A DNA stretch of 64,000 nucleotides from Psammoneis japonica. Its lineage: Eukaryota. Location of the stretch: positions 1 to 64,000 of the forward strand of contig QPGO01000069.1 in assembly GCA_008632985.1 (NCBI GenBank). The letters are read 5' to 3'. A program made the position numbers and the translations under genes. The notes under the pieces were generated by a model. It was not told where the DNA came from and did not search any database. It saw nothing but the letters and a program-made list of their open reading frames with translations. This document shows positions 12,301-43,292 of the stretch, in pieces (the stretch's first letter is position 1; each line of letters starts with the position of its first letter).

Positions 12301-12339
12301 CTCGAAACCATCGGTTTGTTGCTGACGAGTGAGAACCAT
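6397..12339 (-). pseudogene. gag-pol polyprotein of copia element 1 (frameshifted, internally duplicated and deleted)
   Basis: Gag: FKRGIKRDP, LENAVHP. Protease: LVDRGANGG. Integrase: IATDTV..., LISDRAQVE, HQNFAERR. RT: WATDIGNA, AVYVDD. RNase H: CVDANL, SEFVAAR, GDNKSV, NPADILSK. Confidence 0.95.
9840..10757. repeat. 457-bp tandem duplication of the protease region with TGGC microhomology
   Basis: 9840-10296 is repeated at 10297-10753. TGGC occurs at 9840, 10297 and 10754. 457 is not divisible by 3, so it frameshifts pol. Confidence 0.95.
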
Positions 12340-13265
12340 GGTAGACAAAAGTGGTGTCAGGACAATCAATTCTGGTTGGGAAGCGAAGGCAGACTCGAAA
12401 CTTGGGTGAGAATGGACTTGACTTGAAATGGACTTGACTTGAAATCTTGAACTGTCTTAAAATCAGAAGTCGCCGGGCTTTGTCATCCCGTTCGTTGTCA
12501 AGTGCTAAACTTCCCATCCGGACCGCAGAGTTGTGCCGGCACGTCCGAACCCGCAGCCAGCGGCGCTTTGGGTTGCTTGCGAGCGGAGCAGCGGGTTGTA
12601 AACCCCTGCAGGCAAGCTGAACAGAGGTGGACAAGACCCCCGAACCGTTCTTATTTTGTGTCGGTTGGATTTCCCGATCAGGCTGGCCAGTTGACGCAGG
12701 CGTCAGGCGCTGTGGACGAACGAACAAACGCGGGAAAGCACCCTCGCCCCAATGCAGGCTGCAATCACGGCTGCTTGCTCTCACAGTCGTCCTCGTGGAC
12801 CCAGTAGAACTGTAGAGCACCAGTAGTCCGGGGTAGATCAGGTACAATGGACTCGGTGTGCTTGTAGAGTGGTGGCAAAACCGCAGTCCGAAGAGTGGGT
12901 ACAGGTTCTTGGCCGTGAAGATATGTATATATATATGTCTTCAGCGACGAAGATCCTTGAATATGTAGGGTTCTTGACCGTTAACCGATGAATAGGTATA
13001 TCAAGGGATGAGGATCAAGGATAGACTTGGATATGACCGTTGAATGTATGTCTTCAGCGATCAAAGGTAGTATAATCAATCCAGATATCCAGCGGTAAGG
13101 AGACTTGACGGTGACGTTAACTTCCTGCCGATGCCCTGGTATTGAATGCGCGTAGACTTGCCGATGTATGTAGAATATATACGGAGGTCCACGTAGAATT
13201 GAAATAGCGTCGTTGGTAAATCAACGACGACGATGGCGGTTGCTCAATGGGTTGACAATGAGCAA

Positions 13266-13276
13266 GACTGTTAATC
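13266..13276 (-). other. Putative primer-binding site complementary to a tRNA-Asn(GUU) anticodon arm
   Basis: Plus-strand GACTGTTAATC abuts the 5' LTR and resembles the tRNA-Asn anticodon stem-loop (positions ~30-40). Confidence 0.55.
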
Positions 13277-13552
13277 TGATAGAAAATGAAGGCAAATGGC
13301 AAGAATTCAAACAATAACTCCTTACTGCTGTCTAAATAGCAGATGAGTCTCCGCTCAGAGACCGTTACAGGAGCCGAAAGACGTGTAAGTCGGTATAATC
13401 GGGCTACTGTTATTATTCTTGTGAGTCTTGTGGCTCGAAAGCAAACTACATCGCGCGTGAACGCGCGGAACTAAAGCACACAAAACTGTGCGCGGTAAAC
13501 TAAACAGCGCGCGATGCTTCGCGCGCATCCAAATCCTGTTCAAATCCTGTCA
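13277..13552 (-). repeat. 5' LTR of copia element 1 (276 bp, TpA-retaining copy)
   Basis: TGATAG...CTGTCA, direct repeat of 6120-6396. Confidence 0.97.
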
Positions 13553-15624: not shown

Positions 15625-17402
15625 TTATTTATATTTTTGGCAGAACGCTTCGTGATGATTCTTGAAGAGTTCCACGGCGCGTTCCATTTCTTGTTCAGGA
15701 GGCAAAAAGGTTGTTCGGAACCCATACCGTCCTTCTTCTTGTCCAAAGCCCGAGGCAGGAACGACACAAATACCTGTGCTTTCCAGCAAGGAAATGGCAT
15801 AGAGCGTGTCGGGCGAAATGCCCTCTGCTTTCGCCGCCTCTTGTGCCGCCCATGGAATCTGCACGGAAGGAAAGCAGTACATGGAACCCTGTGCCGGCTG
15901 ACAAGAAAATCCGGGAATACTATCCAAACCATTTCCCACAATACGCGACCGACGTTTTAGGCTGGAATAGACAGCTTTCTTTTCAGCCTCGTGCCTCTCA
16001 TATGATTCGTCACCCGGTTTCGGGCCACGCACCATGAGACTCATCATGATTTGACCATTTACGGTAGAGCACAGGCTAGAAGACGCAAGTTTGTATAGCT
16101 GATCCATGACATCCTCATCAATGCCCACAAGTTCCATGTACCCCCCACGGCGACCGCATTCTCCAAACAAACCCTTGCTGGAGGAATGAAAAGATACGAG
16201 TTCTAATTCACCGCTGTCAATCAATCCGCAATCATGAGCCGCACGTTTGCAGCTTGTGAATTTCGCATTATCGGCATAAACGTTTTCTTGATACACTTCG
16301 TCTGCCAAGAGCACCAGCTTGTGCTTGGCGCAAAACCTGCACACGTCACGGACAGCCTTTTTCGACAGAACTTGTCCCGTGGGGTTGCCAGGGTTGATGA
16401 GAACAAAACTATTGACATTGATTCCAGCCTCTTTTGCGTCCTTGAGCGCACGCTCCAACTCTTTCATATTGAGATCCCACTGATGCTTTTCGTCGAGATA
16501 GTAACCAACCTTTTGACCACCCAACAAGTCAATCGTTGCGCTGTAGATTGGGTATTGCGGTATCGGAATCATAACGCCACTACAATTTCGGTTTGATGGA
16601 TCAACAGACGCAGTGTAAGAAATCACAAAGACAAAACTTAGGTCACATCATAAGAAACAAAACAGAAACTCACCATGTTGAATCTGCGATTAGCGTTTGG
16701 AGCATCATTTGAATCGCCGAACTTGCACCGTTTGTTATGAATATATGTTCAGGATTACTCGGCACTCCCCCATCGCGTGCTTCAATAAAGTCCGCAATAT
16801 CCTTTCGAAAGGCAGCAACTCCTTTGGAATGACTGTAGGCACCCGTACCCATACCACCCATGGCTGCTTGAATTTCCTTGGCACGAGCAATCGCATCCGA
16901 CGGAAACATTTTCGAAGCCATTGGATGGTCGACACCAACCTCGGGAGGCAGTTCTGCCAATGCCAAGACTTGTCTCGGCCATGTTAGTGGCTTTTGACCG
17001 ACCGAATGTGGATTCCCAATGTTGGTGTAAATAATATGATCAAAGGGATAGCTGCCCCTGTCGTTTGCTAAATCGTGACTGATTTTGTCGGCTGCAATCA
17101 CAACCTTTCCACGAACCGCATACTCCATCTCCCGCAAATTTTGCGACATTGTGTCGAGCGTCAGGCGATGAGTAACTAAGAGAGGAGAGTGCAAAAAAAT
17201 GTTTAAGACAACCCATCACAAGCGGAAATACAGATCCACGACGATAATCTTCTACAGCTGTAATTCCCACGCATTTCGCCGACTTCCACTCACCTCGAGG
17301 AGCTGCGACTGTTTCAGAAGCGGCATGTTGACAAGCAACTATAAATACCGTGAGAGAAACAAATCCCTTCTTGATAGGATTTCTACTAGATGTGATGGAC
17401 AT
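15625..17402 (-). CDS. Alanine aminotransferase family (AlaAT / glutamate:glyoxylate aminotransferase-like); exons 17402-17294, 17175-16674, 16579-15625
   Basis: Motifs EYAVRG, NIGNP, GAYSHSKG, IPQYPIYSA, INPGNPTG, LADEVYQ, SFHSSSKG (PLP Lys) and GECGRRGGY. Canonical introns keep the frame. Confidence 0.93.
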
Positions 17403-17567
17403 TATACAACTCCATAAAACTGCAAACAAAAACGGCAACAACTTGCAACAACCACAAAGACGCAGACAATGCAGTGATGCGCCGAGTTGAGTGAAGAAAT
17501 TATTGTGTCAAAGAACGAAGAACAGCGAAAGTTGATGCCGGCCATCTTTTTTCAAAAAATTCGATGC

Positions 17568-17598
17568 TGACGTCGCGTATTTGACGTCATGATGACGT
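17568..17598. promoter_or_regulatory. Cluster of three TGACGT (CRE/CCRE-like, bZIP) motifs in the divergent AlaAT/oxidoreductase promoter
   Basis: TGACGT at 17568, TGACGTCA at 17582, TGACGT at 17593. Confidence 0.6.
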
Positions 17599-17808
17599 GA
17601 AGTAAATTGTGCGAGTGAGGGAAATGGCGCGCGCCACGCGCACAAAAATCTTTCTGTCTGTGCGTCTCTCCGGTTCAACTTGCCGCTCTGCCAGCGCTCG
17701 GCGCTCGGCGCTCGCAACTCGGCACTCGGCGCTCGGCTTTTTTTCATGTCATTTTATTTTCTTTTCTGTTGTTGCGTTGTTGCTACTTCTGGCGTTTTCG
17801 ATAATCAA

Positions 17809-19220
17809 ATGAAGACGGCGCATCAGTCCTTGGTCCCTGGAAGCACTTGTCGATCGATCTGGTTTCTTTTTGTAATTTTGTTGCTCAGCTGTGTAAAATT
17901 CAGCATGTCCTTGGCAGCTTCTCGCAACATCGTGGTGGTTGGCGGCGGCATTCAGGGAACTTCTGTTGCCTTTCACCTGGCCCAGCAAGACAAGAATGCC
18001 AATATTTTACTATTGGAATCCAAAGCTCCAGCCTCCGCAGCGTCTGGAAAGGGTGGAGGTTTTATGGCTCGCAGTTGGGGAGACGGCACGCCCACGCAGA
18101 GATTGCATGAATTGGCGTTTGATATGTACGAACGTCTGGCGGTTGAGTTGGATTGCAAATCGTATCGGAAGCTTCCCGTTCTGTCTGTATCTCCCGGAAA
18201 TAAGGGTCTCGCATCGGCACGAAAGGACCGAATCGTCAAGGATTTGTTACCCGGTTGGTTGGACGGCAATGTGGGAAGAATCTCAGCCATGGGCTTGGGT
18301 GATGATACCGCACAAGTTACTCCGTCTGAATTTGTGACAAAAATGCTGGAAAAAACTTCCAACCAAGTCAAGGTTGTCTTGGGAACATGTACGGGAGTAG
18401 AAACAATGGATAACGACGATTGCAAGCAAATTACAGGCATCACGTACAAACCCCGTGATGCTCCCGACAGCACTACCGAAACGATTGAAGCTGATGCTGT
18501 AGTGGTTTCTGCGGGTCCTTGGTCGTGCGCAGCAGAACAATGGTTTGACGGTTCGGTTCAACTTCCCATGGAAGGTATCAAGAGCACCAGTATTGTTTGG
18601 AAGAAGCCAGAGAATGAAGAGGTTGATGGAACTGCACTCTTTTGCGGGGAGGACAACCGTTTTGGAACTCACTGTAAGCTTTCAATATTTGATTTCGTCG
18701 TGTCAAAGCTGTTCGTGTCTCACAGTCTTTCCTCTTGGTCTGCATTATCATCTCTAGTGGAAGTCTATCCTCGTCCGGATGGTACAATTTACATTTGCGG
18801 TATTGGTGGCTCAGACTACATTCCCAAGGAGGATTGCAAGCGGGTGCTTTTCTGGAAACGTGCGACGCCAAGGAAACCCGTGTCGAGGCTGCCTCGGCAT
18901 CCTTTCAGGAAATGTCAAAGCAGTACAAACAAAACGGTGAATTGGACAGAGTTCAGGCGTGCATGAGACCGTGTCCGCCGGATGCCATGCCGTACATGGG
19001 CCGTGTTCCAGGATATGAGGGTGCCTTCATGAATGCAGGACACAATTGCTGGGGAATAGCATGGGCACCCGCATGTGGACAAGCCATGGCAGAGTTGGTT
19101 TTGACTGGTGAATGCTCTAGTGTTAATTTGGCTCCATTTGATCCAGCAAGATTTACGAGAAGGGTTCGTGGTGGGCGAGGTAGAAAAAAGAAAGGAGCAA
19201 GTGTCGGAGAACAGTGGTAG
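17809..19220 (+). CDS. FAD-dependent oxidoreductase (DAO/glycine oxidase-like family); intron 18674-18757
   Basis: Rossmann motif VVVGGGIQG, ASGKGGGF, VVSAGPWS, ACMRPCPPDAMP, AGHNCWGI. 1-bp frameshift near 18832. Confidence 0.88.
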
Positions 19221-19530
19221 ACCTCCTCCGTACTTAGTCATGGTTATGCGAGTAAATACCGTAGAAGTATGCACCAAACTATCCGAAATGCAATGATAGA
19301 TGCGTTGGCTTTCTGCGTCCCTCCCAGCAATACAGCCGATTAATCCTTTCCGGTTCATTCCATTTTCAATTTTAGATTTGCTTTTTCAGAGAAACGGAAG
19401 ATGGGAGGACCATGGAGCCCGCGCCAAAAAAATCACGGGTATGGTAGCGCGTATGCGCGCGGGGAAGCAGAATCATCGGCTGACATTCAACATTCAACAC
19501 TCGAGCACCGGTATCCGATATGCCGCAACC

Positions 19531-20832
19531 ATGGCGGATGTCGTAGACGATGCGAGCCCCCCATATGGTGTTGTACTACCTCCGACGGCAGAACGTTGTT
19601 TGCTTCGTCGACTTCCAAAGGAGGTTTCACGAAGGATCGTATCGTACGGCGACGTTGAATCGAACGTGCGACTTGCGGCGTGTTCGTCAGGGCTAAGACG
19701 CTTTGTGTACCGAGACTGCCCCAGTGCATGGGCCGAGATTGATTTTGAGAGTGTAACGAATGCGAGTAACATCACTGATGCTGATCTCTTTACCTTGCTC
19801 AAGAACGTCGACGCTCACAAGGTGACGAGATCCCTCTCCTTGATGGGCTGCACCTCGGTTCGAGGCGGCGGACTGTCTGCGCTGATGTACTCGCGTCGCC
19901 TGGAAGAGATTGAACTCCGACGGAGCAGCGAGGAGATGGAAAGGTATGACCAAACAGGCCTTAAAAACTCAATTATAATTGGGGTGCTGAAGTCGATGCC
20001 TCCAATCAACACAAACCTCACGGCTTATCAAGGAGTCCCTGTTGGACTGAAAGTAGTCAAGTTTCGAAAGCAGCATGCAAACGCGGCGACCTTTTTTTCT
20101 TCATTTGATAACCCGATTGCTGACTTCTATGAAAGGCTACAAAGCGCCACTGCGGAGAGCATGAGAAAGCATCGAACTGCGTGTGATTTTTGTCACCGAG
20201 CAATCGTAGATACCATTGACGAAGACGACTTTGAGTGGCAGGGACAGTTGTCTTATTGCAGTGATTGCAAGGCGTTTACTTGCGACTTTTGCAGTGAAGG
20301 GATTTCTGAATGCCGTGCATGCATTGGTCAATACTGCAGTGAATGCAGATCTGTAACTTATTGTGTCGATTGCGACCAACCATTTTGCGAAAAGTGCAAG
20401 GAATCGTTCTATTGTGAATTCTGTGATAAGGCATTTTGTGAAGAATGTCGAGATGCCACGTTGTGTGACATCTGTGAGAGTGCCTCTTGTCATTCGTGTC
20501 GTGGTGTCCTCAGCTGCCGGGCTTGCAGTCGGTCGTACTGCAAAAAGTGCATGCCTGCTGTGGAATTTTGCGACAAATGCAAGGAGATCTATTGCATCTT
20601 ATGCAGCCCTGTCGTGGAATGCCATCGCTGTGGATTCTCTTCTTGTACATTCTGCTCTGCGGTGATGAGGCAGGTTTCAAAGGATTGCAAAGGATCGTGC
20701 ACTAATTGTCAACGTGTGTGCAAATGCCTCGGATGCACGCTTGGTCGAGCCAAACAGCAACTCATTACCAAGTACTTTGTGCCATTGAAGGAAAGCAGCA
20801 GCCCCGAAAGGAAGCGACCTCGTCTTGTTTAG
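19531..20832 (+). CDS. F-box-like / LRR-like protein with long CxxC-repeat Cys-rich C-terminus, paralog A
   Basis: F-box-like LLRRLPKEVSRRIVSY...W, LSLMGC LRR-like segment, many CxxC repeats, C-terminal RKRPRL (NLS-like). Confidence 0.7.
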   Translation: MADVVDDASPPYGVVLPPTAERCLLRRLPKEVSRRIVSYGDVESNVRLAACSSGLRRFVYRDCPSAWAEIDFESVTNASNITDADLFTLLKNVDAHKVTRSLSLMGCTSVRGGGLSALMYSRRLEEIELRRSSEEMERYDQTGLKNSIIIGVLKSMPPINTNLTAYQGVPVGLKVVKFRKQHANAATFFSSFDNPIADFYERLQSATAESMRKHRTACDFCHRAIVDTIDEDDFEWQGQLSYCSDCKAFTCDFCSEGISECRACIGQYCSECRSVTYCVDCDQPFCEKCKESFYCEFCDKAFCEECRDATLCDICESASCHSCRGVLSCRACSRSYCKKCMPAVEFCDKCKEIYCILCSPVVECHRCGFSSCTFCSAVMRQVSKDCKGSCTNCQRVCKCLGCTLGRAKQQLITKYFVPLKESSSPERKRPRLV

Positions 20833-21267
20833 GTTGGTCATTGCTACGTACGGTATTGCGACCGTGGCTATGACCTGGCAAATGGTTTACGGGCGCGAAT
20901 TGTTTCTTGTTTCTCAATGAACGGTAGATTGGGAAAATGCGCTAAGACGACCCAGAGTTGCCTCGGGTTCGATCTAAGGCACATAAACGGATGAACCTTC
21001 TCTAGAGTGCGAAAGGGTCTGGAGTAAAGAGGGCATACCTAGTACCATAAAGATATTCACTCTTCAAGCTGACATGTTCTAAGGATACAACGTAATTTTG
21101 CTTTCCCTAACACTTTTCACTACCCCTTTTTGTTAGTTTCCGAGATGGCTACGATCGCTTCAAGCTACAATGATCGGTGACATCATAAGGGCAACAACAT
21201 TGCGTCGAAAGCGACCAATCAATCGGATGGAGCCGTACAAGCGCATTTATAATACTTGAAACTCCTC

Positions 21268-22196
21268 CTACATGAACTTTGCTTGGCTAAAATCCATTTC
21301 AGGATGCTGCTTCTTGAACCTCTCAAACGCATCAAGCTTGTCCTGTTCCTCACTCGTAGGCAATCCCATTGCTTTTTGGCGCTGATCATACATCATCTTT
21401 TCTACTGTCTGTTGTATTTCACCGTCCAGATCGGATAGACTAGATGACTCTGGCTGAATCGTCTTGACATCAATCTTGGCATCCCCCTCGACTACACAAT
21501 CCCACCATTCCATTTGATCAAGCTTTTGTAAATTAATCACCAACGCATTACCGTCCTCGATAGTCCAAAACGAATCATCGACAATAACGCTTTTGCAGAG
21601 CGGAGCGTTGACGATGAATTCCTTTTCAGCCTTGAGACCAACCTTGAGATGCTTTTTGTGGATGACTACATTCAAATCCCGTGCACGAGAACCTTGTGGT
21701 AGGGGAACGTTGACATTGACTTCAGCCAAGGTTTGTGTCCAGACATACTTGCCCTCGACTGTACCGCCGTTTCCTACCGGCGGCGGTGCCTTCGTCTCGT
21801 CGTTGTCGTCGTTTTGTTGTGTGGACGGAGCGGCCGCTTCTTTAGTTTCCGGAGGTGTCTTTTTAGGTTCTTCAATCTTTTTCGTATCTTTCTTAGGTTG
21901 AGCAGAAGCAGGTTTCGGTGTCTTGGTTGGAGATACATCAAAGCCACCGTCGTTTCCAATCTCGACCACATCTTCAGACTTTTCTTTCTCCTCCGTCTTT
22001 TTCTTTTCCTTTTTCTTCTTTGATGCTGCCGCTTTTTTATTCTTGGCCTCTTGTTCCTTTTCATATAGCTTCAAGTGCTTATCCAAGACCTTTTGCACGG
22101 TTTGAACCGCCATTTTCGTTCCTCCCTTGCCTTCCGGACCTGCAAAGAAATCGGTCTTGCGTCTAAGAAACGAGAATACACTGTCTAGCAGCGGTT
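21268..22196 (-). pseudogene. 5'-truncated NudC copy (no start codon, no first ~28 codons, no promoter)
   Basis: Near-identical to 31104-32023 but cut at the duplication junction. Reads DGEIQ where the intact copy reads DGETQ. Confidence 0.85.
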
Positions 22197-22412
22197 GTTC
22201 CAGGATATGAGGGTGCCTTCATGAATGCAGGACACAATTGCTGGGGAATAGCATGGGCACCCGCGTGTGGACAAGCCATGGCAGAGTTGGTTTTGACTGG
22301 CGAATGCTCTAGTATTAATTTGGCTCCATTTGATCCAGCAAGATTTACGAGAAGGGTTCGTGGTGGGCGAGGTAGAAAAAAGAAAGGAGCAAGTGTCGGA
22401 GAACAGTGGTAG
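22197..22412 (+). pseudogene. 3' fragment of the FAD oxidoreductase gene
   Basis: Copy of 19005-19220 (MNAGHNCWGIAWAPACG...GEQW*) with no upstream exons. Confidence 0.9.
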
Positions 22413-22572
22413 ACCTGCTCCGTACTTAGTCATGGTTATGCGAGTAAATAGAAGTATGCACCAAACTATCCGAAAGGCAATGATAGATGTGTTGGCTTTC
22501 TGCGTCCCTCCCAGCAATACAGCCGCATTAATCCTTTCCAGTTCATTCCATTTTCGATTTGCTTTTTCAGTG

Positions 22573-25500
22573 CGAGCGAAATCCGATGTATCGAGCATTG
22601 GATTGGGATACCAATGCTGCGCTGCTATGTTGAAGTGGCGCGCGGGACTGTGACGTGGTGTCGGTGGGAAAGATGATGACCATGACCATCGATCGGTCTC
22701 ACTTGTTGCAATCGTTGCAGTGGTGACAGGCCTGGAAGCATCTTGTTGGTTGCATTCACATTGTCGTGCTAAAACTGTGAGTGGCTGAGCCTGTCTGGCA
22801 ACTGGATTTGCTCACTTTGTCAGAGCCAAGTCTCAACTCACGCTTGGTTTGACAAAAAGTGACGAGCAACTGAAAAGAAACGATTGCACCATCATGGCAT
22901 GGTCATGACGACGAATGCCGGACGATCGATGGGCATGCAATGATTGTCATCACCCAGCATCAGTGCATGCATGAGCAGTGAGGAGACATGGCCAGTCTCT
23001 CCATGCTTCCAATGGCTGTGTGTTGTCGTCAGCACAAAAAGAGAAATGTGATCGTCTTGTGTGTTTTCTCACATGACTCTGTTTTCCCACTGGCATGGGT
23101 GCCACTGTGGTGGCTGCTCTTCCTGATCTGATTGAGACAGCTCTTGATTGGATTGGATTTGTTGACCAGGCTCACAACGAGCTTCGCTTGTGGTGGATTT
23201 CGTGTCGTTTGACGATTTAGAAGACCTTGAGGAAGACGATGTCGACTCTCTTGCTTCGTCACATGCAAGGAGGACGGTTGCTGAAGGGCGCATTCATTTT
23301 GGTTTGGCCCGCAGTCATTGACTCAAAGCTTTCATCCATTGGGTTCAAGATTTTGGCCGCACAAGCGAGAACCCTGCTCTTGATGGGCTCGACCAAGCGA
23401 CACCCCGCACTGAACTCCAGACGGCACTTGGTCGCGCTGAGATTCACTCTCAGACTGAGGACACGGCAGACTCTCTTGGTGAGGAGGCATCACCTGGGAT
23501 GTCAGAGAGTGAGAAAGGTTGGGCAAAGTGGTGCACTGGCTTGACAAACATGTCAGGCATTGTGCTGGGAGAGTGTCCGGCATGCCACCAGTGCATTGCA
23601 TCCATCTGAACGATGCACCAGAGCCCAATGGTCACAACACCTTTGTCCAGAAGTGCATTGCATGTGCACCTCTCAATGGCCCAGCTTTTGAAGTGGATGC
23701 TCACACCATTCATTTGTTGGCAGAGTCCCTTGCCATGGGGACACCAAGTGAACAGTGGTTGAAAGACTGCAAAAGCGAGCAAAATGGACGCGTGGACTGT
23801 CAGGCACCATGTGACCACTGCCAGGGAGAAGGAAATTCCTCCCATTGCATTTCTGAAGCCAAGCGCATGGAGAACACTCTCCATTGCAAGAGTGAACATG
23901 CTGTGCTGTTTGAGTTGTTTGTTGACAAACTCCAAGAAATGTTCAACATTTGTGAGGAGAACGATGAACCCAAAACGGAGGCTCAGAAACTGTGCATCCT
24001 TTTCAAGAAGACTCAGCACCAACAGCTGCAGGCTGCAGTTGAGTCCTTGAAGGCACAAAACAAGTTTGGAGGAGGCATCACATTCACCATGGTGGCTGAC
24101 CACATTGCGCATCGCCGTGCGATTGCTGCAGTTGCCTCAGGAGGAGGAAGCAAGAGTGGCACCAACTGCAATGCCGATGGATTCATTGACACTGGATGCC
24201 ACAAGAATTGGCGCCAGTTGAGCAAAGAGGACAAGCAGAAGGTCATCGACAAGCGCACGCATCTGGGAATTTCTGAGCAACCTAAGAATCTGGCAAACGC
24301 CGTGCTGCACATCTGTCAAGTTGCTCAAGAAGAAAAATTGGAAGCTGTCGTTGCAGCTTAAAGAAGCAAACCGCAAAATCTTCACTTTGAACACAGACAC
24401 CCCCACGCTGATTTGGGCAATGATTCAAAGGATGGTGGACAAGACAAGGACAATGCCGGAGACGCATTCGGTGGATGCAGTGAAAGGTGCAGCAGATGCC
24501 AGAAATGACTGCCAAGCTGGACTCTGCTCTGTGGCACATCATCAACTTTGCACTGTGGTTGCTGCACTGGGGCAGAGGACACCCACATTGATCAGTCAGA
24601 AGAGACCCAAGTTGCTGCAGTTGAAAGATTTGCAAGGCAGTTGCCTCCACTTGATGCATTTCTGCAGCTCGGTCCGACACCCGAATCCCTCATGTCTGCG
24701 ACATGAGTCAGGAGGTACAGCATGGATGTGTTGAAATGGATTTGCATGCTGACACCACTGTCTTTGGTCATGGTTTCACCCTCTTGGGTTGTTCTGGAAG
24801 AGAGTGTGATGTGTTGCCTTTCAATGAGGGATGCAATTCCATCAAGAGTGTCCCGACAGTTTCAGCAGCAACAGCGTGGACGTCACCAACATTGGGAGCA
24901 ACGTTTGTTCTGGTCTTCCACAAGGGCTTGTGGATGTCAGACTCCATGGAGCACTCATTGGTCAACCCCAACCAATTCTTGTGGCATTTCAGTGTGAAGG
25001 TCCAGGACAACCCCTGTTCCAACTTGCCATTGCACATTCTCATGGAGGACAATTCATTCATGATGTCACTCGAGGTTGTGGGGACCAATGTCGTTGCGGC
25101 AACCCGCACTCCTGCAGATCAGGAGTTGCACAAGTGCCCCAGGATCCTGATGACCTCCCAGCAACCCTGGGATCCACAGAACATCAAGTTCAATTCTGTT
25201 AGACCTCAACGCTCTGCAGAGGAGGAAATGGAATTGGTTTGGTGAGTTGCAACGGTCGACACTGTCCAGACAAATTTGACACACAAATTTAGTGCCGACC
25301 CCACTTGCAGCAACCCTCAGTCCGGGGACTGCAAAGACAGGCAATTCATCTGTGGTGTCAATCAGATACAATCAAGGTTAACAGCAGTGGTTAAAGTGGA
25401 GTCACTGCCAGAAGCCAAGGTCACTGCAACCAAAACAATTGGCAACGGACCTGAAGATTTGCCAACTCGAAAGACATTCATGTCCAAGGAGTGACACAGT

Positions 25501-28500
25501 GATGTGACAGCTGCGGACTTGAGTGAATGATGGAGTGTTGGACTCAAGCAAGCAACGAGTGCACTCAAGAAAACTGCTCAGAAGCTCTCAAGGTCGGCGC
25601 TGATGCCCATGGGTCAACGCCATCGAGCGGACTGCATGTTTGCGAAACCAAGACTGCGAGGTGAGTGGGCAACCGACACTGTTGACAGCAAGGTGACTTT
25701 GTTGGAAGGCAACCGAAATGCCCAGATCCTTGCAAACAAGCAATGCTTTGCTGCAATGAGCCCCATGGACAAGAAGAGCAAAGCAGGAGAAGCTCTAAAG
25801 ACGTTCTGCCAAGAATTTGGCATTCCGGAGAAGCTCGTCATGGATGGTTCCAAGGAACAGACGAAACTGGGCACTGAGTTCATGAAGATGGTGTGCAAGG
25901 ACGGCATTGACTGCCATGTTGTCAAACCCGATCAACACAACCAGAACCCTGCTGAAGGCATTGCACATGAAGTTCAGTGCAAGTGGTTCCGTGTCATGGT
26001 CAAGAAGTGTGCACCGTGGCAACTGTGGGGTTGCGGATTTGCATGGACCTGCAAAATCATGTCTCACACGTTCCTCAGATCACATCATTTGGATGCTGGA
26101 GCACCACTTGAAAACATTCTTGGAGAGACCGTGGACATCTTGGAGCACCTGGACTTTGGATTTTATGATTGGGTCTGGCACAGGGAGAACGTGGGTCTTG
26201 GCGATGAGAAACTTGGCACAGGTGGCTTGGCGCATCTCGTGGAATGGGGAGCCTCATGTCACATCATGCTTTGACAGAGACCGGCAGTGTCATGTTGAGG
26301 ACATCTGTTCAAGGAGTCACCAACTTAGAAGCCATCACTCAAGAGAACAAGGTTAAGTTCAACAGTTTTGACGAGGAGATCATGCGCCATCTGAGGGAGC
26401 ATGATTTCCCCGATGATGAAGAACGAAAGATCAGCCCCGAAGATTGGAAGGACCACCTTGGACATGACGAAGAATTCCTTGATGAGTGCAATTGCATCAT
26501 GTCATTGGAAGAAGCAATTAATGAGGATGATGACACGAAAGACAAGAAAGCCTCACCAGAAGAGCAACTGATTGGGTGATTGGGGTCACCTCAATGTGGA
26601 AGCAGCACTCCCAAGGGATGACAATGGCCCTGAATTTGCTCATGTTGCAAAGAGGTTAAGAGATGCCAGTGGCATTCTGAGAGGAGCAGCCAACGACAAT
26701 CCCATCCTTGACACTGGGATGCATGAGGTGGAGCACCCCGATGGGCACAGTGCTGCGCTCTCTGCCAACTCCATTGCCATCAACATGATCGCAAAGATCA
26801 ATGAAGATGGGAGCCGACATGTTCTGTTTGATGAGTCAGTTGATTGCCATGCAAATGGGGACATTTCGGAATCCACGTTCTTTGAGACTGATCAGGGTGT
26901 TCAGAAGAGGCACAAGACTGCCAAGGGATGGGAACTCCTGTTCCAATGGAAGGACAGGAGTGTGACATGGACAGACTTGAAGGACGCCAAGGAGAGCTTC
27001 CCTGTCCAAGTCACCAAGTTTTCCATCCAACACAAGATCTCAGAGGAGGCAGCATTTGCTTGGTGGGTCCCTCATGTCATGAGGACCCACAAGCATTCCA
27101 TTGCAAAGGTCAAGTCGAAACATTGGCCAAGGACACACAAGTTTGGTGTCCGAATTCCCAAGAGCATCAAGGAGGTGATCCAGCTAGATTGCGTGAATGA
27201 CAACACCCTTTGGTGGGATGCCATTTGCATGGAGATGAAGAATGCATGCATTGCATTTGAGAAATGCAAGGGGGGGCTAGAAGACATGGCGCCTGGCTGT
27301 CAGGAAGTAAAATGCCATGTGATTTTCTACATCAAGATGGGAGAAAATTTTTGTGGCAAAGCTCGCATGGTGGCTGGAGGCCACACTGCTGAAGCCCCTG
27401 CAACTCTCACCTGCTCCTCTGTCATCTCGCAGGATTTGGCAAGAATTGCACTTGCACTTGCAGTGCTCAGCCAACAACTTGAAAGTTTTTGCATGTGACA
27501 TCCAGAACGCCCACCTTGCTGCCCCTTGCAGGGAGAAGATTTGGACCCGTGCAGGCTCAGAATTTGGTGAAGATGAAGGATGCATCATGATTGCAGTCAG
27601 AGCTCTCTGTAAATTAAAGAGCTCGGGAGTGGCATTTGGGGCATTTCTGGTGGAGACGCTGTGTGATCTGGGGCACAAACTGAGCAAGGCCGATCCGGAC
27701 GTGTGGATGCAACCTGCAGTGAAACCCGATGGATTCGAGCACTGCGAGTGCGTTTTGGTTTATGTTGACAACGTGTTGTCAATCAGTCACAAGCCAATGA
27801 AGATGATGGATGGCATCAGGTCCAAGTTCAAGCTCAAGGGTGACAAGGCAGCCAAGCCTGATTCTCACCTCAGAGCTGCGCTTTCCAAGAGGACTCTGGC
27901 CGATGGAACCACCTGTTGGTCGATGTCTGCGGAGAAGTGCTGAAAGGCTGCTGTTCAGAATGTTGAGGACAAACTCAACAAAAAAGGAAGACATCCACCC
28001 AATGAGGTGACCACTCCACTGGGCTGTGGACACAAGCCCAAGCTGGACATGACTGGTGAATTAGATGCCAAAGGACTGCACTGCTGCCAAGAGTTGATTG
28101 GGCGTGTTGGTTTGGGCGGTGGAACTTGGCAGAGTCGACATCCATTTGGAAGTGTCATCAACATCTGCCCACCTTGCATTGCCTTGCATTGGTCATCTGG
28201 AACAGGTGCTGCATGTCTTTGCGCATCTTAAACAGGTTCCAAAGTGCCAAGTGGCTTTTACCCGGCTCATCCCAAGATTGTTGAATCTTGATTCGTGAAG
28301 TGTGGTTGGCACGACTCTTGCCAAGACGCCAAGAAAGCCATCCCAACAAATGCACCGCCCACTCAAGGCAATGCAATGTCAACACATTGTTTTGTGGATT
28401 CTCATCATGCTGGCAATGTTGCCGATCACTGCAGTCACACAGGCATCTTGACGTTTGTCAATTGGGCACCCGTCATGTGGTGCTCGAAACGTCAGAATGC

Positions 28501-29225
28501 TGTGGAGGCGAGTGCATTTGGAGCCAAGATCGTCAACTCAAGAATGCTGTCAAGCTCATTGAAGGACTACGATGCAAGCTTTGAATGTTTGGGGTGCCAA
28601 TTGAGGGATCAATGAATGTCTTTTGCAACAACAAAGCCGCCCACAAGAGTTGCTCTGTTCCTGAGTCTGCACTCAAGAAGAAGCATCATTCCATTGCGCA
28701 CCACCACAACCGGGAAGCTGTCACTGCAGGGACTGTCAGGATTGCAAAGGAGGGAACAGAAACAAATCTGAGTGATCTGTTCACAAAGACCATGTCGTCG
28801 GTCAGGCGAAATTTTCTGTTGGACAAGTTCGCGCATTGAGTGGAGGAGCAGAGGTGGAGGAGCGGTGGTGATTTTCTTCCCTGGCGAGGGTTTGCACCAT
28901 GCTCAAGGATCATGTTTATTTAATTTAGTGTTGGAGATTGCAATTTGGCACTGGGTTGAATTGCATCTAGTGAGCTTGCTGGGAACATTTCGAGGGAACG
29001 AGTGAAATCCGATGTGTCGAGGATCGGACGCTGCGCTGCACAAGTTGAAGTGGCGGGACTGTGAGGTGGTGTCGGTGGGAAGATGACCATGACCATCGAT
29101 CGGTCTCACTTGTTGCAATCGTTGTAGTGGTAACAGGCCTAGACGCATCTTGTTGGTTGCATGTATTCACATTATCGTACTAAGACTGTGAGTGGCTGAG
29201 CCCACATGGCAGCTAGATTTACTCG
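22573..29225 (+). mobile_element. Ty1/copia (CoDi-like) LTR retrotransposon 2, heavily hypermutated; LTRs 22573-22814 and 28999-29225
   Basis: Diverged direct-repeat LTRs. AGTG duplicated at 22569-22572 and 29226-29229. Empty site present in copy A at ~19380-19405. PR: EMDLHADT. IN: EFGIPEKLVMDGSKEQ, NQNPAEG. RT: KARMVAGGH, CDIQNAHL, VYVDN. RH: FVDSHHAG, WCSKRQN, NLSDLFTK. PBS-like TGTCAGAGCC at 22818. PPT GAGGGAA at ~28992-28998. Confidence 0.93.
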
Positions 29226-29364
29226 AGTGTAACGGACGATGGGAGGACCATGGAGCCCGCGCCAAAAATCACGGGTAGCGCGTAGCGCGGCGAAGCAGAA
29301 GCGGCGCTGAGCGCTGACATTCGCCCACTCTGAACTCGAGCACCGGTATCGGTATGCCGCAACC

Positions 29365-30663
29365 ATGGCGGATGTCATAGACGATGCGAGCCCCCCATAT
29401 GGTGTTGTACTACCTCCGACGGCAGAACGTTGTTTGCTTCGTCGACTTCCAAAGGAGGTTTCACGAAGGATCGTATCGTACGGCGACGTTGAATCGAACG
29501 TGCGACTTGCGGCGTGTTCGTCAGGGCTAAGACGCTTTGTGTACCGAGACTGCCCCAGTGCATGGGCCGAGATTGATTTTGAGAGTGTACCGAATGCGAG
29601 TAACATCACTGATGCTGATCTCTTTACCTTGCTCAAGAACGTCGACGCTCACAAGGTGACGAGATCCCTCTCCCTGATGGGCTGCACCTCGGTTCGAGGC
29701 GGCGGACTGTCTGCGCTGATGTACTCGCGTCGCCTGGAAGAGATTGAACTCCGACGAAGCAGCGAGGAGATGGGGAGGTATGGCCAAACAGGCCTTCAAA
29801 ACCCCGTTGTAATTGGGGTGCTAAACTCGATGCCTCCAATCAACACCAACATCACGGCTTATCCGGGTGTCCCTGTTGGACTGAAAGAAGTCAAGTTTCG
29901 AAAGCAGCGCGCAAACGCGAATTTTTTTTCTTCGTTTGGTTACCCGATTGATGAGTTCTATGTAAGGCTTCAAAGCGCCACTGCAGAGGCCATGAGAAAG
30001 CAGCAAACTACCTGTAATTGGTGTCAAGAAGCAATCGTAGATACCATTGCCGAAGACGACTTTGGGTGGAAGGGACCGTTGTCTTATTGCAGTGATTGCA
30101 AGGCGTTTACTTGCGACTTTTGCAGTGAAGGGATTTCTGAATGCCGTGCATGCATTGGTCAATACTGCAGTGAATGCAGATCTGTAACTTATTGTGACGA
30201 TTGCGACCAACCATTTTGCGAAAAGTGCAAGGAATCGTTCTATTGTGAATTCTGTGATAAGGCATTTTGTGAAGAATGTCGAGATGCCACGTTGTGTGAC
30301 ATCTGTGAGAGTGCCTCTTGTCATTCGTGTCGTGGTGTCCTCAGCTGCCGGGCTTGCGGTCGGTCGTACTGCAAAGAGTGCATGCCTGCTGTGGAATTTT
30401 GCGACGAATGCAAGGAGATCTATTGCATCTTATGCAGCCCTGCGGTGGAATGCGATCGCTGTGGATTCTCTTCTTGTAAGTTCTGCTCTGCGGTGATGAG
30501 ACAGATTTCAAAGGATTGCAAAGGATCGTGCACTAATTGTCAACGTGTGTGCAAATGCCTCGGATGCACGCTTGGTCGGGCCAAGCAGCAACTCATTACC
30601 AAGTACTTTGTGCCTTTGAAGGAGAGCGGCAGCCCCGAAAGAAAGCGACCTCGTCTTGTTTAG
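29365..30663 (+). CDS. F-box-like / CxxC-repeat protein, paralog B
   Basis: Intact 432-aa ORF, paralog of 19531-20832. Confidence 0.7.
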   Translation: MADVIDDASPPYGVVLPPTAERCLLRRLPKEVSRRIVSYGDVESNVRLAACSSGLRRFVYRDCPSAWAEIDFESVPNASNITDADLFTLLKNVDAHKVTRSLSLMGCTSVRGGGLSALMYSRRLEEIELRRSSEEMGRYGQTGLQNPVVIGVLNSMPPINTNITAYPGVPVGLKEVKFRKQRANANFFSSFGYPIDEFYVRLQSATAEAMRKQQTTCNWCQEAIVDTIAEDDFGWKGPLSYCSDCKAFTCDFCSEGISECRACIGQYCSECRSVTYCDDCDQPFCEKCKESFYCEFCDKAFCEECRDATLCDICESASCHSCRGVLSCRACGRSYCKECMPAVEFCDECKEIYCILCSPAVECDRCGFSSCKFCSAVMRQISKDCKGSCTNCQRVCKCLGCTLGRAKQQLITKYFVPLKESGSPERKRPRLV

Positions 30664-31103
30664 GTTGGTCATTGCTGCGTACGGTATTGCGACCGTGGCT
30701 ATGACCTGGCAAATGGTTCACGGGCACGATTTGTTTCTTAGTCAAAATGAACGGTATATTGGGAAAATGCGCTAAGACGACCCAGAGTTGCCTCGGGTTC
30801 GATCTAAGGCACATAAACGGATGAACCTTCTCTAGAGTGCGAAAGGGTCTGGAGTAAAGAGGACATAACTAGTACCATAAAGATATTCACTCTTCAAGCT
30901 GACATGTTCTAAGGATACAACGTAATTTTGCTTTCTCTATCACTTATCACTACCCCTTTTTCTTAGTTTCCGAGATGGCTACGATCGCTTCAAGCTACAA
31001 AGATGTGAGTCGGTGACATCATAAGGGCAACAACATTGCGTCGAAAGCGACCAATCAATCGGCTGGAGCCGTACAAGCGCATCTATAATACTTGAAACTC
31101 CTC

Positions 31104-32105
31104 CTACATAAACTTTGCTTGGCTAAAATCCATTTCAGGGTGCTGCTTCTTGAACTTCTCAAACGCATCAAGCTTGTCCTGTTCCTCACTCGTAGGCAAT
31201 CCCATTGCTTTTTGGCGCTGATCATACATCATCTTTTCTACGGTCTGTTGTGTTTCACCGTCCAGATCGGATAGACTGGATGACTCTGGCTGAATCGTCT
31301 TGACATCAATCTTGGCATCCCCCTCGACTACACAATCCCACCATTCCATTTGATCAAGCTTTTGCAAATTAATCACCAACGCATTACCGTCCTCGATAGT
31401 CCAAAAGGAATCATCGACAATGACGCTTTTGCAGAGCGGAGCGTTGACAATGAATTCCTTTGCAGCCTTGAGACCAACCTTGAGATGCTTTTTGTGGATG
31501 ACTACATTCAAGTCCCGTGCACGAGAGCCTTGTGGTAGAGGAACGTTGACATTGACTTCAGCCAAGGTTTGTGTCCAGACATACTTGCCCTCGACTGTAC
31601 CACCGTTTCCTACCGGCGGCGGTGCCTTCGTCTCGTCGTTGTCGTCGTTTTGTTGTGTGGACGTAGCGGCCGCTTCTGTAGTTTGCGGAGGTGTCTTTTT
31701 AGGTTCTTCAATCTTTTTCGTATCATTTTTAGGTTGAGCAGGAAGGGTCGGTGTCTTGGCTGGAGATACATCAAAGCCACCGTCGTTTCCAATCTCGACC
31801 ACATCTTCAGACTTTTCTTTCTCTTCCGTCTTTTTCTTTTTCTTCTTTGATGCTGCCGCTTTTTTATTCTTGGCCTCTTGTTCCTTTTCATATAGCTTCA
31901 AGTGCTTGTCCAAGACCTTTTGCACGGTTTGAACCGCCATTTCCGTTCCTCCCTTGCCTTCCGGACCTGCAAAGAAATCGGTCTTGCGTCTCAGAAACGA
32001 GAATACACTGTCTAGCAGCGGTTCAATCCCTCGAGTGGTTTGAGCCACATTCAGATACAGTCCGTCGAATCGATCATCATCCATAAAAGCTTGGCTGGAC
32101 GACAT
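31104..32105 (-). CDS. NUDC: Nuclear migration protein NudC (N-terminal NudC domain, CS/p23 domain, C-terminal domain)
   Basis: DDRFDGLYLNVAQ...FSFLRRKTDFF; YVWTQTL; WWDCVVEGD; LSDLDGETQQTVEKMMYDQRQK; HPEMDFSQAK. Confidence 0.93.
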   Translation of the reverse strand: MSSSQAFMDDDRFDGLYLNVAQTTRGIEPLLDSVFSFLRRKTDFFAGPEGKGGTEMAVQTVQKVLDKHLKLYEKEQEAKNKKAAASKKKKKKTEEKEKSEDVVEIGNDGGFDVSPAKTPTLPAQPKNDTKKIEEPKKTPPQTTEAAATSTQQNDDNDETKAPPPVGNGGTVEGKYVWTQTLAEVNVNVPLPQGSRARDLNVVIHKKHLKVGLKAAKEFIVNAPLCKSVIVDDSFWTIEDGNALVINLQKLDQMEWWDCVVEGDAKIDVKTIQPESSSLSDLDGETQQTVEKMMYDQRQKAMGLPTSEEQDKLDAFEKFKKQHPEMDFSQAKFM

Positions 32106-32275
32106 GGTGACTATCTGTTCGCCGGAGTGGTACGGCTTTCTCGATTCAATCGGACGGTTGTCATTGTGAGCAAAATCAAAATCCAGCGCTCAGCGTCCAG
32201 CGGCGGAAGATCGCGTTTCCCGCGCAAAATCAACGGAACGTGAAAAGCCAGATTCCAATATTTGAGATTCTATAA

Positions 32276-32449
32276 TGACGTCATCCTTGCACATACATGA
32301 CGTCGGCATTCGATGACGACACATACCAATTCGAATTGTGTAGATTCTACACGAATTTGAAATTTTGAGGCCATGAACACGTCAGCGTTCGTCGTTGCTT
32401 CGTCGTTGCGCAAATCTTTCTCCGTTTTTGAACGGGCTCTCGTACGTCA
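32276..32449. promoter_or_regulatory. Four TGACGT/ACGTCA motifs upstream of the glycolate oxidase-like gene
   Basis: TGACGTCA at 32276, TGACGT at 32298, ACGTCA at 32379 and 32444. Confidence 0.6.
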
Positions 32450-32548
32450 CGACGCGATACCAAGCATTCCATTGCGATTGCTGAGTATCAAAGCTCTTCA
32501 CAAGTTTGTGTTGGGAACAGAAAAGACTTGGATAGGGCATTAGCGGCG

Positions 32549-34134
32549 ATGGTTATTAATCCGCATAAGCTTGGGGTTCACAAGATCCTGAAACACATTC
32601 CTCTGAATGCTGTTTTCGATGCTCCTGCCAAGAGACGCCTTGCCAAGGCGGTGAACATTGCCGATCTTCGGCTATGCGCCAAAGCTCGTGCCCATAAGGT
32701 TAGTTCAGATGGCATTGATGGCAGCGAGATCGCAAAGTAGGCTGATGCTTTAGTTCGTCGAGAAATAATGTGCGGAGAAGCTTGACAAGTACGGTCGATT
32801 GAGAAAAAATGAGGTGTGATGCGGTCTGCCGTGTGTCATTGCATCATCCGAGTCACAGAGTTTTTTGACATGTTGTGCTGCAGATCCGCGAATGCTTTCA
32901 ATAATATCTTTCCCAGCATTGAATTATTTGAAGATTTACGTGCTTATTGGTTTTGTTGTCTCTCTTTTTTCTGGTTTGAATATGGTAGATGGTCTTCGAC
33001 TACCTTGATGCGGGTGCCGATGACGAAATCAGTCTCCGTCGAGGAAAGGATGCATACTCGGAGCTCGAGATGCATTACCAGATTCTTGCAGGTATCAAAC
33101 CTCCGCTTGATCTTTCGACAAAAATCTTTGGCTGCGATGTCAAGCTGCCTTTCTTTGGATGCCCAACCGCCGGAAACCGCATGTTCCACTGGGAGGGTGA
33201 GACTGCCGCAGCCAAAGCTGCTGAGCACCACGGATCTCTGTATGGTCTCTCATCTCTTGCCACAACTGGTATCACAGAGATTGGTGAGATTTGCAAGTCA
33301 CCAAAGGTCTTCCAGCTTTACGTGTGGAAGGATCGGGAACTCGTCAAGGAGGTTCTTGCCAAGGCAAAGGAGGGTGGTTTCAACGCCCTTGCTTTGACCG
33401 TTGACTTCACTTGGTACGGAAACCGTGAAAGAGATATCCGCAACGATTTCTCCATCCCGCCCAAGTACTCTGTCAACCAAATGATTGAGGCTATCAAGAA
33501 GCCAGCATGGACCTACGATTTCCTCTCGCATGAACCCTACACCTACGCCTGTATCAACACCGATGTGCCAGCAGACTCTCTTGCTGCTTTTGTAAACAGT
33601 CAGATTGCTCCAGAGTTTGATTGGAAGGACGCTGAATGGCTCCTTGGTGAATGGAACGGCCCGTCAGCTGTCAAGGGTGTTGTTCGCCCAGATGATGCAA
33701 TCAAGTCTGTGGAGACCGGGTTCACTACCATGTGGGTTTCAAACCACGGAGCCCGGCAGCTTGAAACGTCTCCCGCCACAATTGATGTCTTGCCATCCAT
33801 TCGTGAGGCAGTCGGGCCAGATGTTGAAATCATTATGGACGGTGGTGTGCAGCGTGGTACTGATATTGCCAAGGCTCTTGCACTTGGTGCGGATGCCGTT
33901 GGTGTTGGTAAGCCATACCTTTACGGCCTTGCCGCCGGTGGTGCGGATGGTGTCATCAAGGCCCTTGAGATTCTCAAGGTTGAACTTGATCGAGCCATGG
34001 GTCTCCTTGGTACACCAACAGTGGACGATCTGAAGAAGAACGGCCACAGGCTGATCAAGAGGCGGCATGCAAGTGCTCGCGACTACCCTGATAGGTACGC
34101 GTATGAACGTGGCTACGGAGGCGGCGTGATTTAA
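32549..34134 (+). CDS. FMN-dependent alpha-hydroxy acid oxidase/dehydrogenase (glycolate oxidase-like); intron 32699-32988
   Basis: NIADLR..A/MVFDYLDAGADDE, FQLYVWKD, ALTVD, GNRERD, VSNHGARQLE, DGGVQRGTDIAKALALGA. Confidence 0.92.
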
Positions 34135-34559: not shown

Positions 34560-34856
34560 CTAGCTATCTGTAGAGTACAAGTCTAGAGTAGCTAGTACTT
34601 TCGGCTCTACTCTCTATCTCTACAGTACTTACCTCTCTACTCTCTAGCTAGAGAGTTAGTAGGCCGTACTACTAGCTAGGTAGCTACCGGTACCGGTAGG
34701 CCCTCTAGCTCTGGAGTAGTAGTAGCGAGAGGGTTTTCTCTATCACACCAGTAGTACGTAGAGTACTCTCTACTCTAGCTCTACTCTAGAGCAAGTCTAC
34801 GGTGCTAGCTCTAGAGCTACTCTCTACCTAGAGAGTAGAGAGTAGAGAGGACTACT
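34560..34856. repeat. TpA-dense low-complexity island made of CTAG/GTAC/CTAC/GTAG units
   Basis: About 300 bp of TAGC/TACT/CTAG words, including the 16-bp palindrome CTCTCTAGCTAGAGAG at 34640-34655. Confidence 0.85.
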
Positions 34857-35247
34857 GATGATTGGACACGGAACCGCGCAAAAGAAGTAGCAGTTGCGCC
34901 ACATTTTTTTTTCTTCCACTCGCACGTTGCGTCGAGCACGACGTGTTCCCCTGTCATTGCCTTGGCTATCATTTCCTCGGTTACGCGGGCGGAGCGTCCT
35001 TGTCTTCTCTGTTTTTCTCCCCAACAAATCGAAGTACCGTTCATTGGGTGACTAACTATTCGTCTGTTGGACGCAATAGAGTGTTATCAAGTAGATTGAA
35101 GGCTTACAGGCGAGACAAACGGGTTTGCTGCGAGTCGTTCGCCCCGGTTCCAACAAGGAAAAGCGCATCCAAACGTTTGGCAATGGCAACCGCCCAGCCA
35201 CCCACTACCTGCTAAATCCGTTCCAACCAACGAGGCCAAGAAACATC

Positions 35248-42400: not shown

Positions 42401-43250
42401 CAAGCTGTTTTGCTTCAATCAAATGCACCCTTCTCAACTCTGGGTCACTTGAGCCACGACTCTTCCATCATCTTCTTGTCAACTGGCAATTCATTTCAGA
42501 TGCTTTCAGCTTGCTTCCATCCCCACAGATTCATGCAGCAATGCACAATCCTTGGAGCTTCTTTTGTCAGCTTTGAAACATTTTTGAATCCACACACAAA
42601 TTTCACACTCAACTGGAGGGAGCTTGTGGGAAAGCCCACAGATGACCCAGTTGCTTGTGCGGCATGCCAAGTGTGTCTGATGTCTGCCACAGATTGCAAG
42701 CAACAACAGGTGGTGTGGTGTGCATTGAGTTCTGCGAGATGTGCCAGGAGTGCAAGTTTCTCTGCAACTCACCCTTTCTTTCATTTTTGATCTGTCAGCA
42801 TCCTGCCAAGCCTTCAGTTTCTTGACAATGTGAGTCAGAACATTTTGTCTTTTATTTCATCTTCTGTGCAGCAGCAGCCCAGCTGCTGGAAGGATCTTCA
42901 TTTCAGCCATTGGCCGCCATTGACTCTGGAGCTGTGACACACCAGGCTCCCACTCTCCATCTGAGCCTGGACCTCTTTGTGCACTGCTTCAATGAGCTCC
43001 TCATGATTTTGTTGTTTTGTTGCTTGTTGCATGCATGCAGCACTGAGGTCTGCTGAAGCTCCAATTTTGGCAGAGCCATGCCTTGCACTGGCCACCCAAT
43101 TGGTCAACTTTTTCACCCTGATCTTGTTGTCACTTCTGACATCCATGGCTTGCTGGGTGGATCAGGTTTGCCCTCCTGGGGTGTGTGCTCAAAAGATGGG
43201 AAACACAATGGGCTGGTCAAACCCTGTGCACCCAGCTGCCATTTCACATG

Positions 43251-43292
43251 CACAACAACAACAACAACACACAACAACAACAACAACAACAC
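43251..43292. repeat. (CAA)n microsatellite
   Basis: Imperfect CAA run. Confidence 0.9.

Follow-up and report, generated by a model that had tools for sequence, protein, structure and literature searches.

A tandem 3.2-kb gene duplication that keeps its TpA dinucleotides around a hypermutated copia element in the diatom Psammoneis japonica

The duplicated locus and its copia insert

The window analyzed here, i.e., the whole stretch of 64,000 nucleotides at positions 1 to 64,000 of contig QPGO01000069.1 (Psammoneis japonica, GenBank assembly GCA_008632985.1), contains a direct tandem duplication of 3.2 kb, whose two copies, A and B, are ~96% identical with 125 differences (self-BLAST and global alignment), and a Ty1/copia-type long terminal repeat (LTR) retrotransposon that interrupts copy B (Table 1). 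The copia has lost most of its TpA dinucleotides (TA), and both copies of the duplicated genes keep theirs. With respect to the alignment of the copies, 19004-19372 matches 22196-22560 with 8 mismatches in 364 aligned bases, and 19393-22196 matches 29231-32023 with ~117-120 mismatches in ~2784 aligned bases and 55 gap columns. This bears out the first-pass annotation of this DNA, which had described a 3.2-kb duplication comprising an oxidoreductase tail, an F-box-like gene, and NudC. One base (T) at the junction at 22196 is common to the end and the start of the unit, a single-base microhomology compatible with ordinary end-joining or slippage duplication.

Because the edges of the unit cut through genes, the complete oxidoreductase ends in copy A and the complete NudC ends in copy B. 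The unit carries the ~215 terminal coding bases and the 3' region of the oxidoreductase, so that the piece in copy B is without everything 5' of 19004, and NudC A is without its first 27 codons and the DNA upstream of them; both pieces are fragments. At all three of the conserved sites where the two NudC copies differ, it is NudC A that has the derived residue. The named best matches of NudC are all from diatoms (Mayamaea, Amphora, Cylindrotheca, Nitzschia, and centric genera), with identities of at most 64%. The F-box-like gene was found as an open reading frame (ORF) in both copies, in agreement with the earlier description, although its assignment is less firm than its name implies: the match to PF12937 spans the entire Pfam profile but scores 15.1 bits in both copies, below the Pfam cut-off of 24.3 (E = 0.02), and just two homologues were found, at 39-46% identity.

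Table 1. Features of the duplicated locus and reference regions of the window, with observed-to-expected ratios (o/e) of TA and CpG
Feature	Position	Strand	TA o/e (TA count)	CpG o/e	Remarks
FAD-dependent oxidoreductase, DAO family	17596-19220	+			Last ~215 coding bases within copy A
Copy A	19004-22196		0.56 (122)	1.01	3' end of oxidoreductase (functional), F-box-like gene A, 5'-truncated NudC A; repeat finding, self-BLAST, global alignment
F-box-like Cys-rich gene A	19531-20832	+			433-aa ORF, intact
NudC A	21268-22196	-			5'-truncated at duplication junction
Copy B, left part	22196-22560		0.70 (18)	0.67	Detached oxidoreductase tail fragment
Ty1/copia-type LTR retrotransposon	~22571-29224	+			RVT_2 match; exact ends uncertain
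Copia LTRs	~22571-22813 and 28995-29224				LTR pair
Contiguous TA-erased copia tract	~22627-29100		0.08 (31 vs 399 expected)	0.45	Right edge fuzzy, ~28917-29125
Copy B, right part	29231-32023		0.55 (99)	1.05	F-box-like gene B and duplicated portion of full-length NudC B
F-box-like Cys-rich gene B	29365-30663				ORF intact
NudC B	31104-32105	-			Full length, 333 aa; start codon 32105, outside duplication
Neighboring single-copy DNA			0.43-0.64	About 0.9-1.0	
Younger copia-type element	6120-13552	-			Perfect 5-bp target duplication AGGGA
Transposable element blocks	40-48 kb and 50-58 kb		0.05-0.06	0.10-0.13	

The tandem duplication is genuine, and contig depths argue against a mis-join in the assembly. 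Logan contigs of one study (run X1) were placed on 17000-34000, and depth was compared per contig class. The left (5.5 kb) and right (6 kb) flank contigs have depths of 60.3 and 55.5, the A-specific contig (19910-20276, 367 nt) and the B-specific contig (29744-30107, 364 nt) have depths of 69.3 and 62.7, copia-specific pieces lie at 51.6-69.5, parts identical in A and B at 109-124, and heterozygous variants at 27-34. Since the A- and B-specific contigs are at full flank depth and the shared parts are doubled, the copies do not behave as two alleles, each of which would show half the depth; each copy at flank depth and common sequence at twice that depth is the pattern of a true tandem segmental duplication. 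Furthermore, the flank contigs stop at 19033 and start at 31994, exactly 30 bases (k-1) inside each duplication edge, where a 31-mer graph has to branch if the reads also follow another path, through the junction. The first-pass annotation had asked that the 22196 junction be verified with spanning reads: the contig ends imply a second path at both edges, but no bridging piece is present among those listed. That absence is what speaks for an assembly artefact, in which A and B would be two haplotypes of one locus, one of them bearing copia, set side by side; given the full rather than half depth of both specific contigs, the double depth of the shared parts, and the contig ends k-1 from both edges, we regard such an artefact as very improbable. 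Half-depth contigs (26.8-29.5) are also seen at 30740-30870 and 19689-19709, with variant clusters and a 3-base insertion, which points to a diploid that carries different alleles in parts of the duplication.

The copia is found only in copy B, with a target-site duplication that is probably CAGTG/GAGTG. Copy A keeps the uninterrupted site at 19372-19393, so that the insertion is most simply placed later than the duplication. Summed contig depth over the element is ~350-1150 vs ~60 in the flanks, i.e., copia belongs to a multi-copy family.

Composition and substitution spectrum of the two copies

Both copies have TA o/e values (0.55-0.70) in line with those of the neighboring single-copy DNA (0.43-0.64), with about 117-118 TA in total in copy B vs 122 in copy A, and both retain their tyrosines (14 and 15 in the two F-box-like genes, 3 and 3 in NudC, 1 and 1 in the oxidoreductase tail), as had been claimed for them at first pass. 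The five copia ORFs, by comparison, have 3 Tyr in 1239 residues. In the mutated blocks of the window, CA and TG are in excess, with o/e values of 1.6-2.3. The promoterless fragments are likewise undepleted: the oxidoreductase tail has 18 TA in A and 18 in B, and NudC has 31 in the truncated copy and 27 in the full-length one. As an argument, this is weaker than originally stated, because the twin of each fragment belongs to a working gene and the ratio of nonsynonymous (dN) to synonymous (dS) divergence of NudC is just 0.19.

The substitution spectrum between A and B, the check that had been proposed, shows no hypermutation signature. The 125 differences comprise 57 transversions and 68 transitions, the latter divided into 13 of TA vs TG/CA, 18 of CpG type, and 37 others. 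Per opportunity, TA-type differences (13/702, 1.85%) are as frequent as other non-CpG transitions (30/1666, 1.80%), meaning that 13/125 TA-type differences correspond to the background rate. Of the 13 sites, 8 have the TA in A and 5 have it in B, so we observe neither an excess nor a direction. The LTR pairs of two elements in the window give a different picture. TA vs TG/CA accounts for 8 of the 17 differences in the copia pair and for 9 of the 10 in the pair (6120/13277) of the copia-type element at 6120-13552, where TA is in the same LTR at all 9 sites. Combined, 17/27 LTR differences are TA-type, a highly significant contrast with the duplicates (Fisher, p = 3e-8).

Two further observations concern the differences between the copies. 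A/G differences exceed C/T differences on the plus strand (51 vs 17), mainly in the F-box-like coding sequence (30 vs 5, coding strand). Moreover, a 350-bp patch of the F-box-like gene (19904-20250 in A, 29738-30081 in B) has a dS of 0.20 and a dN of 0.13, vs 0.044 and 0.015 in the rest of the gene. This diverged patch is possibly the remnant of an older duplication homogenized elsewhere by gene conversion, or a product of diversifying selection.

In the copia, TA density is normal up to 22626, falls to just 27 TA in 22627-28916, and is normal again from ~29125. The first-pass annotation had placed a fully mutated copia inside copy B, and a hypermutated element is indeed present there (TA o/e 0.08), but it is not mutated to its very ends, as TA is kept in the ~60 bp at its left end and in the ~125 bp at its right end. 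At 22589 and 22626, TA is still present in the 5' LTR and replaced by TG or CA in the 3' LTR, whereas further inward the 3' LTR retains TA at 7 sites lost by the 5' LTR. This reciprocal polarity implies that one contiguous interval was mutated, ending ~60 bp (left) and ~125 bp (right) inside the element, and that the mutation took place in situ, after insertion. CpG depletion spans roughly the same interval (o/e 0.45 within, ~1.0 outside). No leakage into the flanks is observed: with copy A as the reference, no TA has disappeared from the 365 bp of copy B to the left of copia, nor from the ~570 bp that follow copia on the right. The copia tract and the flanks in copy B thus show a regional tract with defined edges beside unaffected DNA. 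A consistent 5'/3' LTR polarity across elements was considered and rejected, since copia, on the plus strand, has its 3' LTR spared, and the element at 6120-13552, on the minus strand, its 5' LTR; polarity therefore follows position and not element orientation.

Age of the duplication and trigger of the TpA process

The duplication had been called recent, which is an overstatement: dS reaches 0.095 in NudC and is 0.044 and 0.043, respectively, in most of the F-box-like gene and in the oxidoreductase tail, i.e., 0.04-0.09 apart from the one patch at 0.20. The dN/dS value for most of the F-box-like gene is 0.34. The copia LTRs show 9 non-TA differences in 203 bp (4.4%), which makes the insertion about as old as the apparent duplication. 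There is a loophole: the duplication could be the product of an unequal exchange, between one homologue with copia and one without it, that took place when copia had already been mutated.

The younger copia-type element at 6120-13552 serves as a clock in this respect. Its LTRs have 1 non-TA difference in 277 bp, its core has a TA o/e of 0.10-0.19 with CpG intact (0.94) and a GC content of 0.56-0.59, and its rightmost ~750-1400 bp, one LTR included, are unmutated. Because the insertion and hypermutation of this element, at a distance of 5.5 kb from copy A, came long after the divergence of the duplicates had begun, the loophole is closed, and the process must have run on this chromosome while a duplicate pair of at least 96% identity was present. 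Being TA-poor with CpG intact, the element also indicates that TA erasure precedes CpG decay, with most TA lost while the LTRs gained 1 other change in 277 bp (a rough rate from one count). Within its TA-erased core, 9840-10757 is an internal tandem duplication of 457 bp with 98.7% identity, and TA vs CA makes up 2/6 of its differences. Since its two copies are both TA-poor, this duplication arose after most of the hypermutation.

These results support the conclusion that sequence duplication and linkage alone are not sufficient to trigger the TpA process. A rule of the type followed by repeat-induced point mutation (RIP) fails here, because a linked 3.2-kb pair of ~96% identity is unmarked though the process was active. 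The first-pass annotation had gone further, naming transposable element (TE) identity or silencing as the trigger and not the pairing of duplicates. The insufficiency of duplication stands, given TA-type differences at background rate, but this locus does not tell TE identity, silencing (small RNA or methylation), and copy number apart, copy number being confounded with TE identity because the copia family is multi-copy.

The explanation that we think probable for the whole is that of a genuine duplication spared by a TpA process that most likely follows a silent chromatin domain. On this view, the 3.2-kb segment was duplicated in tandem, with one base of microhomology at the join, moderately long ago (dS ~0.04-0.09), and copia then landed in copy B, upstream of its F-box-like gene. 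A mutation process of this genome that converts TpA to TpG or CpA within contiguous tracts erased ~86% of the TA expected in copia, in a tract ending ~60 and ~125 bp inside the element, and left both gene copies at genic composition. The inserted TE DNA may become a silent, CpG-methylated chromatin domain throughout which the mutator acts, with neighboring gene chromatin presumably confining it within ~100 bp. The reciprocal LTR polarity and the co-extensive CpG decay favor such a contiguous silent domain.

A number of points weigh against this explanation. The evidence comes from one locus, the 22196 junction lacks a bridging contig or read among the pieces listed, and run X1 may be the assembly's own source sample. 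At differing sites, G/C in B is paired with A/T in A 64 times and the reverse is seen 36 times, an imbalance that is not confined to TpA. Survivorship is a concern, as a portion of a working gene lies in each copy and selection would purge heavily mutated alleles, and the dN/dS of 0.19 for NudC does not demonstrate free evolution of the truncated copy. Finally, as copia is multi-copy, the data would be explained just as well by a threshold of more than two copies.

The last of these points leads to the rival that survives best, a homology or copy-number trigger with a threshold of more than two copies, in which multi-copy families are recognized by pairing or small RNA. The summed depth of copia (~350-1150 vs ~60) and the depth of the shared A/B parts (109-124, exactly two copies) are as this rival would have them. 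We nevertheless consider it unlikely, since the two LTRs of one element, of the same sequence and copy number, have opposite fates by position, the tract at ~4450-12300 is offset from its element at 6120-13552, and the hypermutated viral insert reported for the alga Bigelowiella is, in the preprint's account (see below), a single copy.

Under survivorship, the process would strike duplications as well, and strikes on this pair would kill the oxidoreductase, NudC, or the F-box-like gene and be removed by selection. The part of a functional gene in each copy and the dN/dS values of 0.19 (NudC) and 0.34 (most of the F-box-like gene) are compatible with this. The pair, however, shows no partial signature (13/702 TA-type, equal to the background of 30/1666), its non-functional pieces keep as much TA as their functional twins or more (18 vs 18 in the tail, 31 vs 27 in NudC), and tracts can stop within ~60-125 bp, so that the dead parts could have been struck alone. 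Survivorship is therefore quite unlikely in our view. Pre-integration editing of retroelement RNA or cDNA (ADAR- or APOBEC-like), with genes never exposed, is very improbable. All three recognizable mutated elements of the window do belong to the LTR retrotransposons, but the LTRs of an element start out identical when it integrates and here have come to differ in TA, with a polarity that depends on position; TA-erased DNA extends past LTR ends at 4450-6119 and 56654-58060, and an 8.4-kb tract at 39730-48128 has no reverse-transcriptase match in the 7 ORFs scanned.

Known mutators and other tracts in the window

TpA-directed hypermutation has so far been reported in one 2026 preprint only, and our literature search found no description of a TpA process in diatoms. 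That preprint describes, in the rhizarian alga Bigelowiella natans, TpA-specific hypermutation of integrated DNA of nucleocytoplasmic large DNA viruses (NCLDV) and virophages (Mettrop et al., bioRxiv 10.64898/2026.01.13.699255), at a rate reported as ~1000-fold above background, with a single-copy, transcriptionally silent NCLDV insert as the main target; its authors discuss an RNA-guided or epigenetic trigger together with an adenosine deaminase (10.64898/2026.01.13.699255). In the preprint's account, the changes are almost exclusively T/A to C/G at TpA and form regional tracts on foreign or silent DNA. The same holds at our locus, where TpA to TpG/CpA changes make up 9/10 and 8/17 of the LTR differences, with a TA o/e of 0.08 and a CA/TG o/e of 1.6-1.8. 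The two cases differ in that the viral inserts of Bigelowiella were, as reported, watched mutating in an experiment, whereas here we have sequence footprints alone, on diatom LTR retrotransposons, and in that CpG decay accompanies the older tracts here. Taken together, and as far as the preprint's account goes, repetition would seem not to be needed in Bigelowiella, and it is not sufficient here.

RIP in Neurospora crassa prefers CpA and resembles the process described here in that it hypermutates and inactivates transposons, with a footprint at the dinucleotide level. It depends on RID/DIM-2-type methyltransferases and a premeiotic stage, and it has a heterochromatin-linked branch that involves DIM-2 and DIM-5. 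RIP changes C to T, whereas the changes here are A:T to G:C at TpA and leave a linked 3.2-kb duplication untouched. RIP is described as detecting duplications irrespective of their origin, sequence, coding capacity, and position (10.1101/2021.04.05.438447). It would accordingly be expected to mutate any linked, kilobase-size duplication of high identity, but the present pair has TA o/e values of 0.55-0.70 and 13/125 TA-type differences; nor do we observe C:G to T:A changes and AT-rich repeats, as the mutated tracts have a GC content of 0.47-0.59 and went from TA to TG/CA. Similar to the explanation that we prefer is the heterochromatin-linked branch of RIP, in which mutation is reported to be coupled to silent chromatin and not to pairing alone (PMC11969663), although its chemistry is that of a fungal cytosine methyltransferase and the chromatin link in P. 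japonica is our inference. CpG decay of methylated transposons is alike in the lowered CpG o/e (0.45 in copia, 0.10-0.13 in the older blocks) and in the CA/TG excess. It cannot, however, remove TpA, and the element at 6120-13552 lost its TA with CpG at 0.94.

The chemistry of the process in P. japonica may be the deamination of adenine, which has been proposed for Bigelowiella, or else a thymine modification that leads to mispairing. 5-Hydroxymethyluracil (5hmU) mispairs with G. In dinoflagellates, 5hmU made by TET/JBP enzymes is reported to be enriched on transposons, with thymine replaced preferentially in TA and TC (PMC11572971). This resembles the present case as a TE-enriched base modification with a TA preference and differs from it in being a modification and not a reported mutation process.

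A wider proposal, which we put forward tentatively and would not yet bet on, is that diatoms carry a chromatin-guided DNA-editing defense that turns TpA into TpG/CpA across silent domains seeded by new inserts. Repetition would be neither needed (cf. the single-copy Bigelowiella insert) nor sufficient (cf. the present duplication), and gene chromatin would block the process within ~100 bp. Such a defense might be shared across the SAR (stramenopile, alveolate, and rhizarian) lineages, would be mechanistically unrelated to RIP, and would act by adenine deamination or TET/JBP-type thymine modification.

The value of the locus lies in its being a natural experiment with its own control, as copy A displays copy B before the transposon landed. 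Mutation is confined to the insert and 3.2 kb of adjacent duplicated DNA is ignored, which rules out a RIP-like instruction to mutate what is duplicated and turns attention to the state of the chromatin, to small RNA, or to a way of recognizing inserted DNA. In contrast to Neurospora, gene duplicates can survive in this genome in the presence of an aggressive mutator. We regard the locus as a useful, well-controlled piece of evidence on what triggers a mutator that has hardly been described, and not as representing a new kind of system.

Other tracts are found elsewhere in the window. The tract at ~50030-58060 is, like that at ~4450-12300, offset from its LTR pair (50546-56653). The two LTRs (50546-50729 and 56466-56653) are saturated, at 80% identity, and carry six adjacent double differences in which one LTR reads TG and the other CA. 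Such differences would arise if a single ancestral dinucleotide (TA or CG) had changed separately in the two LTRs. The tract at 39730-48128 has a TA o/e of 0.05, a CpG o/e of 0.13, and edges sharp to tens of bases, and no significant Pfam family was found in the 7 ORFs scanned. Across the TA-erased blocks at 3800-5406, 40374-47995, and 51566-57778, the ORFs likewise gave no significant family, the one match, to DUF5939, being below its cut-off. Lastly, a 300-bp, TA-rich, low-complexity palindromic stretch of CTAG/GTAG type, in which Tandem Repeats Finder (TRF) reports no tandem array, lies among genes at 34560-34860; it contains ~50 TA and is wholly unmutated.

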